A stretch of 64,000 bases of DNA, from the IMG/VR virus record IMGVR_UViG_2880378312_000006, one strand, 5' to 3'. Shown here one piece after another: positions 3,001 through 9,000 of the stretch. The position numbers are program-made. How positions within the stretch are numbered: the stretch's first letter is position 1; every line of letters begins with the position of its first letter. The stretch comes from a virus. Lineage: Duplodnaviria; Heunggongvirae; Uroviricota; Caudoviricetes.

Positions 3001-6000
3001 GCGCATCTCTGCCTGAATTTCGGGCCATTTGGCACCAGGCTTACATTTATGCTTAACCCACCCGATGGCATGCAGCTTAAGCTCCGGATACATAGCGTTA
3101 ACTTCTGGCATTTTCATCAACGCTTCAACGATATGGCCGTCGAATGTTGCCATGTCTTCCTGCAACAATTCCTGTGCGCTAATCACCATATCAACAGTGA
3201 TGTTTTCACATGTGTCGAACTTAACCATGACAGCGTTCTGTACTTCAGGGGCCAGGTTGTCAAAAGTGACGTTCATCGGATCGGATTCAGTCTCGACCGG
3301 GACAAAGGAAGCAGACGCCTCATCCCAGCGGTTTTCCTGCATATATTCAGCATCCCAGGAATCGAGGGCAGGGCGGGGTATACCGGGTTTATCCTCGCAA
3401 ACAAGAAATTTATAAGCGCAGTCCTGAGCAGCCGGATAATGTTCCAGGAATTGCCAGTGAAATTTTGCGCGGGCGCGACGTTCATCACCGGCTTCAATGG
3501 CAGTGGCTACAGCGACGGCACCTTCTTCCTTTATTGCCTGTTCGTCCGGAATGGCGGCGCAAATAAAGACTTTACTCATTTTGTTTTACCTCATTACAGA
3601 TTTAAGGGTGAACAAATCCCTGCCATTGCTGGCATATAAGAATGAAATCGGATGTTTATTACGGAACTGTTTTAAAGACCTGCCGGGATTTCGTTATTAT
3701 CCTGGTGAATAACTTTATCGACCGGGTAACAGTTACCGGGAATTTTCTGTTCGGTTGCTGCAGTCACACACTCCTGCATTGTCCTGTGAACACTGACTGC
3801 AATATCAACTGGCTCTCCGGAAACAAGAAAAACTGTCAGAACAAGTGCAAATGCTGTATTCATTGCCAGCATCCTTTTTGTATCGGACGTAAACGGGCCA
3901 ACATTGAAAGAATGCATATTTTATTTAATAGCTCCCGTTCGTGTTTTCTCTTGTTAATGGCATCTTCAGTAAATACAGGGTTACTGATAGTGACACCAAT
4001 TTCAAAACAACCTTCAGACGTATTAACGTTTGGTAATAACGTTTCCATTATCGCGTCCTCAACAATGAATTTTGTGATGCGGTGCCTGGTGCCTCCAGGT
4101 GACGTTAACCAGTTAACAATTAACGCCGGATACAGAGAATCCCCCCATAACACTGTTTTTGGTTTTAACTGTTCCGCGTGCGCTCAGCCGCATTCACCGC
4201 ATCACAAAATTCACTTTAAAAAGGGCGGCAGAGCAGTCACGGAGTAAAACTGATACCGCCAAACGTCACCAGAAAATTGATAACAGAGGGCGTTGCAGCG
4301 GGGTTGTCACTTAAGCGTATGGTCAACCTGACAACCCGGTGTCCTCAACGGGGGAAGGAATAACCCCTCCATACTTACCGCCGCGCCATTTCGCGGATTG
4401 CCACAACCGGAAGCGCACGGTCGACGAAAATTTAACGACAGGCTATCTATGAACCAGCTACCTCGCCGTGCGCTTTCGCGTTATGGTCTGACTTTTCAGG
4501 GAAATATCCTTTCAGTAAACTGTCAGTGCCGTATGCTCACCCGTGTCCGGCGCACGCACTCCACCTCACCCGTGGAGAACTCCTTAATTACCAACCTTAG
4601 CTTCGTTGGTTAGCTATTAACGCGGGTATGTAATCATTCTGGCAATGCTTAATGCCGCTGCTTTTTCCAGATTGGTGATATCCTGCTCCAGAGCGGACAG
4701 ATTTTCAGCCTGCTTAGCCCTGGCTTCATTGGCCCATTTCAGATCCTGCGCTGCATTAATTTTCTGGTGCATCCACTCATAAAGTTCATCATCGGTATAG
4801 TCTGGCGCGATGATGACGGGTTCTCGTTTCTGCATGTCGGCTCCTTGTGGTTAGCGTTGCCTGCTTTTAACCACGTCAGGCGAGGTGGTATCCTCTGAGG
4901 GGTCTGTTACTCGAGAGGAAATTGGTTATGAATACAATCAAGTTTTCTTGCCCAGAATGTGGTGGCGAAGTCTTTGACACATCCTTTAAGCCGCAGGGCT
5001 CTGACAGTTTCGCGGGAGCCATCTGCAAAAATTGTGGTCACCTTGTAACTGAAGATGAGTCCTCGCAGTTCGATGACGAAATCGTTGACAATATCTTCGG
5101 TGCACTCACCAGAGACTTTCTGAAGTAAAGGCGCATACCGCTTAGTTACCGCTCTGATAACTCTTACCTGTCCTGCAATGGCGCTGATGTCAATATAAAG
5201 CGCCATTGCTGCTTCTTTGCCGATCCCGGGATGCCTTCCATTCTGATGTTTGACTTCGCCCACTGAGAAACCCTCTGTTTCCCCTTAACGCCGGGGTAGC
5301 GGAACAAAAACCTGCTGCATAGTTATTAAAGTTGAACCCTGCCGTCATGTTCATACGCCTCGGGCTGGCTACTTAACCCCTGACCACTGCCGGGTAACTC
5401 GAAGTATTTCCCTGCGTTCTGTGGGGCGGGGTGGGTTGGTATTTTTAGTTTAATAAACATTAAACTTAAGTCAAGTAAAAACTAAACCGCGGGACATAAC
5501 AAACACAACGCTTTTGATAAAGTCGTTGCGGTTGTTATGTTTCTATTGGTAGTGAAAGTTAGGGAAACTGGCGTCTTGCGTGGATCACGTTTACTACTTC
5601 AACGCTTGATGTTGTTACGCGGTATAGAATTATATAGTTAGGGTGGGCTACAATCTCACGCAAGCCAGGTACTCTGTCGCTTGGTGGGTATAAATACGGA
5701 TGTTCGGATAACGGCAGCACACAACCCCTTAATCGCTGCCATAAGCGTTCAGCCGCATCTATGTCGAAACGAGCAATATAACTAGTTATATCATCTAGGT
5801 CGGTATCTGCGCTTTCAAGCCATAACACGGGTAACATTTTACTGCTTGCTCCGTTCCTTGCGCATCTTAGCAAAGCGTTCTGCCATTCTGCGCTCAACTT
5901 CGTCATGGGGAATTGCTGGGCGCGGATCTGCAAGGCTCGTTGCTACTTTCGCACGCAGCCATTCGTTGTAACTGTTTTCTTGTTCAATGGTTTCAAATTC

Positions 6001-9000
6001 AGAAACCATTGGTGAAAGGGCTCTATTCATGTTTCCTCCGGTTTTATAACTCAGGCGCGGCGGCATTTTTGCGCCGCAATCCATCTCGCTATGAGATCTT
6101 CCATTGATTCTTTTTTCTGCTTTAACTCGCTGATTATCTGGCGTTGCTCATCCTCAGGGAAGGCTGAAAAAATCTGCAATAATTCCAGTTGATTAGACGT
6201 TAACCCTGCATGTGGTGGAGAACCCCCCGGTTGTTCTGCGTATTCCGCATCCAGATACCCTTCCGGCATCCCGTATGTTTGCTCTATTCTTCTGGCAGCC
6301 TTTTCTCCAAACGAGGCTCTCCCACTCATTAGTTGAGATAGGTAGCTCTTCTCTTTGGGTGGCAGAGTTTTATCTTTAAACCACTCCTTGAGACGTAAAC
6401 GGCGAATTTCTTTTTTTTGCATGTGGTAATTATCTTTAGTAATCACTAAACAAGCAAATACTTGACTTAATGGTTTATTAAACACTAAACTCGCAAAAAA
6501 ACACTAAACCGAGGAAGGTATGACATTAAAAGAGTTTATTAAATCATTAAGGGTTGGTGATGCTAAGAAATTCGCGGCCAGACTTGGTGTATCGCCATCT
6601 TACTTATCGCAAATGGCGTCTGGACGAACAGCTATATCTCCAACCCGCGCCCTTATGATCGAATCTGCGACGGAAGGCCAAGTAAGTAGGGCGGAGCTAC
6701 GACCCCATGATTGGGAGCTTATTTGGCCTGAGTATGCGAGCGGCATTCGTTTGGGGCAAACACATGTAGTTCATGCTGAAGGTGATTGTAGTGCATGCTT
6801 ATCTGATGGAGTTGATTCATGAAAATCAAGCATGAACACATCCGCATGGCGATGAATGTCTGGGCGCATCCGGACGGCGAAAAAGTACCGGCTGCGAAAA
6901 TTACCAAAGCGTATTTCGAGCTGGGAATGACGTTCCCGGAACTGTATGACGACAGCCATCCGGAAGCCCTGGCCCGTAATACCCAGAAAATTTTCCGTTG
7001 GCTGGATAAAGACACCCCTGATGCTGTTGAAAAAATGCAGGCTCTGTTACCGGCGATCGAAAAGGCGATGCCGCCTTTGCTGGTGGCCCGTATGCGCAGC
7101 CACAGTTCTGAATATTACCGTGAGATCGTCGAACGGAGGGATCGGCTGGTGAAGGATGTCGATGATTTTGTTGCGTCAGCGGTTGTTTTGTATGACCAGA
7201 TGAATCGCGGCGGCCCGGCAGGGAATGCTGTGGTGATGCACTAAAAGCACGGTGTTCGGGGGTTTTATGAGCAGCAAGCTTCATGGTCTTGTCTGGGAAG
7301 GGTGCGCCTTCACCGGCATGATCTTATCCAGGGTGGCGGTTATGGCCCGTCTTGCAGACTACAGCAATGACGAGGGCGTGTCATGGCCTGCCATTGAAAC
7401 TATCCGGCGTCAGATCGGTGCAAGAAGTGAATCCACAGTGAAATCGGCTATTGCAGAACTGGCGAAAGAGGGCTGGCTGACGAAGGAAGAGCGTAAGGTC
7501 GGTGGGCGTAATGTAAGCAATATCTATCGGCTTAATGTGGAAAAACTCGAAGCAGCTGCTGCGGCGGCGCGTGAGTCATATAAACCGAAAAGAAAAATTA
7601 GCCCGGCAAAAAATGACCCGTTAACAGTTGACCCGTCAAATATTGCCCCCTCAACGGTTGACCCGTCAAATTTTGATGGATCAACTGTTGATAACAAACT
7701 GCCGATTAGGGGGGCGATGATTGACCCCAATCCGTCAGTATTAAAACCTGATCCGTCAGATAAAAGATCTTCTTGTCCGGACGCTTCGCAACCGGACCCG
7801 CAGACGGCTGAACAGAATTTTTTAACCCGACACCCTGACGCGGTTGTGTTCAGTGCGAAAAAACGCCAGTGGGGAAGTCAGGAAGATTTGGTGTGCGCAC
7901 AGTGGATCTGGGGACGAATCGTGAGTCTTTACGAGCAGGCGGCCAGCGATGATGGCGAGATCACGAGACCGAAAGAACCCAACTGGACTGCATGGGCCAA
8001 TGACGTGCGGACAATGCGGATGCTGGATGGCAGAACTCACAGACAAATTTGTGAAATGTTTGGGCGTCTCCAGCGGGATTCGTTCTGGGTAAAAAACATC
8101 ATGAGTCCGGCAAAACTCCGGGAAAAATGGGATGAACTGGTTATCCGCCTGGGGCGTTCGCCCGCGCAGCGTTGCGTGAATCACATTTCTGAACCGGACA
8201 CTGAAATACCGCCGGGATTCAGGGGGTGACGTGTCATGAAAAACATTGCGGCAGTTGGGGTTCTTGAACGTATTCGCAGACTTGCACCACAGGGGGCGGT
8301 TCCACCGTACCGGACGGTGGAGGAGTGGCGGGAATGGCAACTTGCTGAAGGACGAAAACGCAGCGAGGAGATTAACCGCCTGAATCATCAGGTGCGGGTT
8401 GAAAAAATCCTGAACCGTGCGGGCATCCAGCCGCTTCACAGGAAGTGCTCATTCGGGAACTACCGGGTGCAGAACGACGGTCAGCGCCATGCTCTGAGCC
8501 AGGCGAAATCCATTGCCGATGAATTGATGACCGGATGTACAAACTTCGTGTTCAGCGGTAAACCTGGTACCGGTAAAAATCACCTGGCAGCAGCGATTGG
8601 CAATCGGCTGATGGCGAAGGGGAGAAGCGTGATTATCGTCACCGTGTCCGATGTCATGAGCGTGTTGCATGACGGCTACGACAACGGCCAGTCCGGGGAA
8701 AAATTTTTACAGGAGCTTTGTGGAGTTGACCTTCTGGTCCTTGATGAAATTGGCATGCAGCGGGATACGCGCAACGAGCAGGTCACGCTGAACCAGATAG
8801 TCGACCGCAGAACGGCTTCGATGTGTAGTGTCGGAATGCTGACGAACCTGAATCACGCAGCGATGAGCACACTCCTCGGAGATCGGGTGATGGACCGTAT
8901 GACCATGAATGGTGGTCGTTGGGTGAATTTTAACTGGGAGAGCTGGCGGTCAAACGTTGGACGTCAGGGTATGTGAGAATTTTTGACGAGGTAAATTTTC

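Follow-up and report, generated by a model that had tools for sequence, protein, structure and literature searches.

Genes and identity of the locus

We analysed a 64,000-nucleotide stretch of DNA (the window; IMG/VR virus record IMGVR_UViG_2880378312_000006) in which a repressor gene and a toxin-antitoxin (TA) pair lie between two similar promoter/operator regions, one on the right (OR, 6423-6519) and one on the left (OL, 5441-5490). On the minus strand, paaR2 (6051-6422) encodes a repressor of 123 amino acids (aa) that is the analogue of CI; residues 1-66 are identical to the 'Phage repressor protein CI' of PDB 7nkv/8c3k, and the F-PaaR2 and R-PaaR2 primers match exactly. The same strand carries paaA2 (5839-6030), encoding an antitoxin of 63 aa (Pfam PaaA2, 1.7e-19; residues 2-63 identical to PDB 3zbe), and parE2 (5559-5837), encoding a toxin of 92 aa (Pfam ParE_toxin, 4.8e-16; PDB 5cw7_B, E = 3.7e-59). 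On the plus strand, ydaS (6520-6822) encodes a helix-turn-helix (HTH) protein of 100 aa, the Cro analogue (Pfam YdaS_toxin and HTH_3), and ydaT (6819-7244) a protein of 141 aa, the CII analogue (Pfam YdaT_toxin); published primers match both genes. Further right of ydaT lie two replication genes, one O-like and the other DnaC-like.

Region 5300-6900 is 100% identical to O157-type Escherichia coli chromosomes, is carried in its entirety by 586 of 5426 complete genomes, and is 98.3% identical to phage Evi. Moreover, all 21 of the 21 primers in Table S3 of Jurenas et al. 2021 mBio (PMC8630535), which were designed on E. coli O157:H7 EDL933, have exact matches in the window. The F-PL/R-PL primers of the published PL933P-gfp reporter fragment span exactly 5441-5558, and the FL1/FL2 primers of the fragment used in published electrophoretic mobility shift assays (EMSA) span exactly 6423-6519. 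The window DNA is that of the published PL933P, PR/PRM933P and PRE933P constructs and of the gene primers, and by their matches to solved structures the encoded proteins are PaaR2, PaaA2 and ParE2 of O157:H7. In total, we conclude with high confidence that the locus belongs to the lambdoid cryptic prophage CP-933P (Sp12) of E. coli O157:H7 and forms its immunity region, in which left and right control regions bracket paaR2 and paaA2-parE2, and in which sites for PaaR2 and YdaS are clustered at OR and OL.

Jurenas et al. described this same locus as the immunity region of CP-933P in EDL933. They named PR933P, PRM933P and PL933P together with operators OR1-3 and OL1-3, mapped the starts of PR933P and PRM933P by rapid amplification of 5' cDNA ends (5'-RACE), identified PaaR2 as the functional analogue of CI, with a leaderless mRNA, YdaS as the analogue of Cro and YdaT as the analogue of CII, and drew an explicit analogy to OL/OR of lambda (PMC8630535). 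In a paper on YdaT, paaA2-parE2 are placed where lambda has rexA/rexB and PaaR2 where it has CI (PMC9986795). Since this very sequence, both fragments and the lambda analogy are in print, the two-region architecture is already known. A preliminary description made from the sequence alone had proposed that OR/PR-like and OL/PL-like regions enclose a repressor gene and a TA pair as lambda OL and OR enclose cI-rexAB; this agrees with the published description of the exact sequence and is correct but not new, because the left and right control regions of CP-933P have been published. As a discovery it carries little weight, architecture, promoters, operators and repression by PaaR2 and YdaS having been in print since 2021. 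The comparative gain is modest: in three host genera, the PaaR2 family keeps both the pairing of OL with OR and the TAAACT promoters.

Pfam assigned no family to the 123-aa PaaR2, and therefore no S24 autocleavage domain was found. Similarly, a peptidase motif has been reported to be absent from PaaR2, which did not respond to mitomycin C and is not SOS-inducible (PMC8630535). PaaR2 consists of a small N-terminal DNA-binding domain, the structure of which has been solved, and a C-terminal part, and it works like CI without being a member of the CI family. The names 'cI' and 'cro' in the preliminary description were apt for the roles but not for the proteins, which are PaaR2, with these properties, and YdaS. 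Canonical type II TA autoregulation was not found, in that PaaA2 has no DNA-binding domain and matched only the PaaA2 toxin-binding family in Pfam; control of paaA2-parE2 comes from PaaR2, YdaS and YdaT (PMC8630535).

The right region carries two divergent promoters and an operator cluster

The OR region (6423-6519, no strand assigned) was delimited by promoter scan, repeats, motif search, identity with the EMSA fragment and the published footprints. PR933P is on the plus strand, with its -35 element at 6462-6467 and its -10 element at 6486-6491; PRM933P is on the minus strand, with -35 TTGCTT (6457 to 6452) and -10 GATAAT (6434 to 6429), the PRM hexamers being our own reading of the sequence. 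The perfect palindrome TTTAGTAATCACTAAA (6435-6450) fills the 17-nt spacer of PRM, the site TTTATTAAACACTAAA (6474-6489) overlaps the -10 element of PR, and a repeat made up of a half-site only (6493-6508) covers the start region of PR. Thus, divergent promoters of the repressor/cro type share a cluster of repeated operators. The same holds for 63 of 63 loci in a non-redundant comparative set of the PaaR2 family (320 kb, from phages of E. coli, Klebsiella and Burkholderia), which was built on PaaR2 homologues (45-100% identity) found in IMG/VR and in Klebsiella phage 5 LV-2017 and Burkholderia phage vB_E177. The ATG of paaR2 at 6422 is 6 nt downstream of the PRM -10 element, consistent with the published leaderless start.

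Binding of PaaR2 (about 78 bp) and of YdaS to the 97-bp intergenic region has been documented by EMSA and DNase I footprints, and the region has been described as containing four 18-bp inverted repeats with the half-site consensus GTTTAGTAA as well as the three pseudosymmetrical 'operators' OR1-3 (PMC8630535). The operator boundaries given here come from a simple search for 16-bp palindromes, whereas the published ones are based on those 18-bp repeats and 'operators'.

In the PRE933P region, TTGATTCATGAAAATCAA (6812-6829, no strand assigned) matches TTGATT-N6-AATCAA, the published YdaT site (PMC9986795), as a regular expression. Separately, a 15-mer of OR, GCAAAAAAACACTAA (6493-6507), recurs exactly at 37419-37433, in a gap of ~340 bp between tail genes I and J. 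Only 0.05 matches of this kind are expected by chance; the copy may represent an orphan half-site, or it may be coincidental.

The left region carries PL933P, operator-like sites and a hairpin

PL933P and the OL operators occupy 5441-5490 on the minus strand, as defined by promoter scan, motif search and the published PL933P-gfp fragment. The -35 element TTGACT (5474 to 5469) and the -10 element TAAACT (5452 to 5447) put the predicted start near 5440. One operator-like site, TTTAATAAACATTAAA (5449-5464), overlaps the -10 element, a second, TCAAGTAAAAACTAAA (5471-5486), overlaps the -35 element, and a TTTAGT half-site is present at 5444-5449. Thus, the operator motif is clustered a second time, with sites at 5449 and 5471, on a leftward promoter, TTGACT-16-TAAACT, beyond the repressor operon. 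In the published description, the -35/-10 elements of PL933P are identical to those of PR933P and are accompanied by the three operators OL1-3 (PMC8630535).

Between the parE2 stop codon and OL lies a long hairpin with 22-nt arms (5494-5540, minus strand; inverted repeat and RNA fold), with a folding energy of -24 kcal/mol (z = -4.8; none of 200 shuffles was as stable). Because relatives carry GC-rich hairpins at the same place, two of them followed by T runs, this hairpin is probably the terminator of the paaR2-paaA2-parE2 transcript. Its high stability would suit the view that 5441-5558 represents in essence the 3' end of this operon with its terminator and that the promoter-like match is incidental. 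However, the hairpin lies next to the promoter/operator block and is distinct from it, cloned 5441-5558 drives gfp (PMC8630535), and 59 of 63 loci keep a TAAACT promoter here; we regard that view as extremely improbable. The left interval proposed earlier, 5441-5558, does contain a promoter/operator block, but about 50 nt of it (5494-5540) are hairpin rather than operator. An Rfam scan of 3500-7500 gave no match in the OL or OR regions; besides DicF and a sub-threshold STnc100 match, both described below, it returned only a match of the 5494-5540 hairpin to a miRNA, which was discarded as spurious.

A leader of ~160 nt immediately downstream of PL (5278-5441) is 88-99% conserved in thousands of E. 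coli genomes including K-12, where it accompanies unrelated immunity modules, and its 5' end is rich in C and poor in G (CCAACCCACCCCGCCCCACAG). The fold of the conserved 178-nt PL leader (5264-5441) was no more stable than that of shuffles (z = +0.9), and therefore no support was found for a structured leader RNA or a nut-like element.

The two regions share promoter and operator sequence

When the reverse complement of 5441-5558 was aligned to 6423-6519, the two regions shared an exact inverted 12-mer, TACTTGACTTAA (5466-5477 and 6459-6470), followed in both by GTTTA, TTTATTAAAC and ACTAAA with small indels, which bears out the earlier claim of a shared block with TTTAGT/ACTAAA half-sites. 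The local alignment score of 30 was reached in 4 of 2000 dinucleotide-preserving shuffles, and a common substring of 12 nt in 12 of 2000. With up to two mismatches allowed, 1.5 copies of the palindrome TTTAGTNNNNACTAAA would be expected in the 64 kb; there are 8, and half of these matches are at 5449, 5471, 6435 (the perfect one) and 6474; moreover, all four ACTAAAC heptamers of the window are inside the two regions. The similarity of the left and right regions is real and non-random. It was, however, only partly right to call them near-mirror images: the promoter block is inverted, TTGACT-16-TAAACT being on the minus strand (5474 to 5447) and TTGACT-18-TAAACT on the plus strand (6462 to 6491), but the spacers differ and the 14-nt repeats A.TAA..ACTAAAC have the same (+) orientation in both regions.

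In the comparative set, sites with at most two mismatches to TTTAGTN4ACTAAA numbered 221, of which 125 were located at OR and the other 96 downstream of the repressor operon, with none elsewhere in the 320 kb. Similarly, a promoter with a -35 element, a 16-18 nt spacer and TAAACT was present at PR in 63/63 loci and at PL in 59/63, and nowhere else on the PL strand, which is that of the repressor gene. By a different explanation of the shared block, PR and PL are simply two sigma-70 promoters of common descent, with a duplicated -35/spacer/-10 unit, and the leftward one has no PaaR2 operator, its TTTAGT/ACTAAA motifs being AT-rich noise. The longest shared stretch is indeed centred on the -35 hexamer, the OL palindromes have two mismatches each, and a few shuffles of these AT-rich segments do match the observed score. 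Against this, operator-like sites at the OL position, and nowhere else in the 320 kb, recur in relatives that are 45-74% identical and have unrelated surrounding DNA, and in a prophage-free host either PaaR2 or YdaS lowered the activity of the PL933P fragment about 100-fold (PMC8630535). We therefore consider common descent without a leftward operator very unlikely.

The same reporter assays touch on the question of which protein acts at the leftward sites. PL933P-gfp was repressed by PaaR2 or YdaS alike, and their exact binding sequences could not be told apart (PMC8630535); moreover, YdaS homologues accompany PaaR2 homologues in 82 of 82 related loci. It could thus be argued that the leftward sites are mainly targets of YdaS during derepression and that control of PL by PaaR2 is indirect or weak. 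However, basal PaaR2 in glucose-grown cells already lowered PL933P activity, as it did that of PR933P, in a reporter host without ydaS (PMC8630535), and we give this possibility very little credence.

Altogether, the claim that OR/PR and OL/PL are under one repressor is supported by the published footprints at OR and the repression of PL933P-gfp (PMC8630535), and we infer that PaaR2 binds directly at OL, with the site boundaries and the PL start near 5440 given above. Several points weigh against this reading. Both OL sites deviate from the palindrome at two positions, and they are spaced 22 bp apart, as compared to 39 and 19 bp at OR; the hairpin at 5494-5540 lacks a canonical U-tract directly after its stem; the regulators were over-expressed in the reporter assays that showed repression of PL933P by a factor of about 100 (PMC8630535); and neither a direct binding assay at OL nor a mapped PL transcript start was found in the accessible literature.

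OL is retained in relatives without the TA pair

PaaR2 homologues of 45-52% identity come from loci that have no TA pair and retain OL 90-360 bp after the repressor gene. Likewise, the Burkholderia phage homologue (66% identity over the N-terminal 58 residues) is in a locus without the TA pair, with OL ~1.2 kb after the repressor gene, and this OL shares an identical 19-mer, GGTTTAGTTTTTACTTGAC, with the window. Because relatives without the TA pair still have OL, OL is by these comparisons ancestral and older than the TA insertion; the TA pair entered the stretch separating OL from the repressor gene, a course of events also suggested in PMC8630535.

Loci with 71-74% PaaR2 identity (e.g. L059, about 2900-3353) contain an additional HTH regulator between the repressor gene and paaA, the C-terminal half of which resembles the C-terminal domain of PaaR2 (…NQKELLQTFEAFPEEDQQQM…ARWLAAQ). 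These loci have two regulators with what looks like the same C-terminal domain.

Operators and repressor are exchanged as one module

Three heteroimmune prophages in the same chromosomal context (L002-L004) have only the flanks in common with the window. Homology on the left stops at 5441/5442, i.e. at the predicted PL start, and on the right resumes at 6803-6813; therefore, the exchangeable module (5442-6810) is OL/PL, parE2, paaA2, paaR2, OR and ydaS, and operators and repressor are inherited together. Two of the three relatives bear a different motif of their own, repeated at each end: L003 has GTAAC-N5-GTTAC and L004 has TACCCAtgGGTA; in L002 no clear motif common to both ends was detected at the thresholds used. 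The presence of the TA pair inside the exchangeable module fits the published idea of a penalty on replacement of the immunity region. Co-residence of the group-B repressor type with CP-933P in O157:H7 genomes, which would permit cross-talk, was also considered and dropped, since this repressor type occurs in only 19 genomes and none of those listed is O157:H7.

The leftward operon and neighbouring open reading frames

Downstream of PL, for which no function of the open reading frames (ORFs) has been given (PMC8630535), the minus strand carries the small RNA (sRNA) DicF (4223-4274; Rfam, 76.7 bits, gathering score 48), DicB (3860-4153; Pfam, 6.2e-37) and, after DicB, a DUF1482/YdfD-like gene (3672-3917). 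Given DicF, DicB and DUF1482, the PL933P operon is a dicB-type cell-division-inhibitor operon. A sub-threshold Rfam match to STnc100 covers 4016-4225.

An ORF for a 68-aa zinc-ribbon protein (CPxCG...CxNCG; 4922-5128, plus strand) is convergent to PL and has a counterpart in the equivalent place of Klebsiella phage 5 LV-2017 (29% identity, E = 5e-11). It overlaps a 118-aa ORF in the sense of PL (4907-5263, minus strand) that is annotated in phage Evi and is not conserved (E = 0.12); the antisense zinc-ribbon ORF is probably the real gene of the pair. Finally, an 823-aa ORF (1108-3579, minus strand), annotated as CP-933P exodeoxyribonuclease in phage Evi, has a C-terminal Rv2179c-like 3'-5' exonuclease domain and a long acidic N-terminal region of low complexity.

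A model for control by PaaR2 and YdaS

In the model that we favour, PaaR2 and YdaS bind pseudo-palindromes of the form (G)TTTAGT-N4-ACTAAA(C) at the OR cluster and, by prediction, at the OL cluster. OR lies between PRM933P, which drives paaR2-paaA2-parE2 as a leaderless mRNA, and PR933P, which drives ydaS-ydaT; OL lies on PL933P at the head of the dicB-type operon with the DicF sRNA and DicB. As the -10 element TAAACT of both PR and PL overlaps the operator half-site ACTAAA(C), and further sites cover the -35 element of PL or the spacer of PRM, bound repressor is predicted to occlude RNA polymerase. PaaR2 octamerises in solution (PMC8630535), and OL and OR may cooperate through such octamers. 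The TA pair lies inside the exchangeable module, at the place taken by rexAB in lambda.

As a more far-reaching and tentative version, which we hold to be possible but somewhat short of an even chance, PaaR2 octamers might bridge OL and OR over ~1 kb, loop out paaR2-paaA2-parE2 and couple repression of PL and PR with TA expression, and at the same time the whole PaaR2 family might keep one operator specificity, with the GTTTAGT half-site, the embedded TAAACT -10 element and the 19-mer found in the Burkholderia phage, TA cassettes having entered the ancestral gap that separates the repressor gene from OL at least twice.

Comparison with known systems

The sequence is the same as that of CP-933P/Sp12 (PMC8630535), with no difference, and the proteins match the solved structures. 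The locus is like lambda in that PRM and PR diverge and have several operators, the repressor mRNA is leaderless, accessory genes lie between cI and OL and are co-transcribed with the repressor, the immunity module is exchangeable as a unit and, on PL, there is a second operator cluster for the same repressor and Cro, although binding at OL is here deduced. It differs from lambda in that most of the PaaR2 sequence has no relation to that of CI and PaaR2 shows no LexA/S24-type autocleavage domain (Pfam; PMC8630535), OL and OR are about 1 kb apart rather than 2.4 kb, OL has two clear operator-like sites and OR two to four, with other spacing, a ParE-type TA pair takes the place of rexAB, and the CP-933P locus has no N/nut system.

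The second system to which the locus can be compared is Qin, the K-12 prophage with DicA/DicC. PaaR2 is only marginally similar to the dicA-annotated genes of PPompW phages (27% identity, E = 4e-4); the operators differ, and in Qin no TA pair separates the repressor gene from the dicB promoter. By contrast, the leftward operon with DicF and DicB lies downstream of the repressor gene and in the orientation of that gene, as in Qin, and the 160-nt leader downstream of PL is held in common with Qin-type prophages, including that of K-12.

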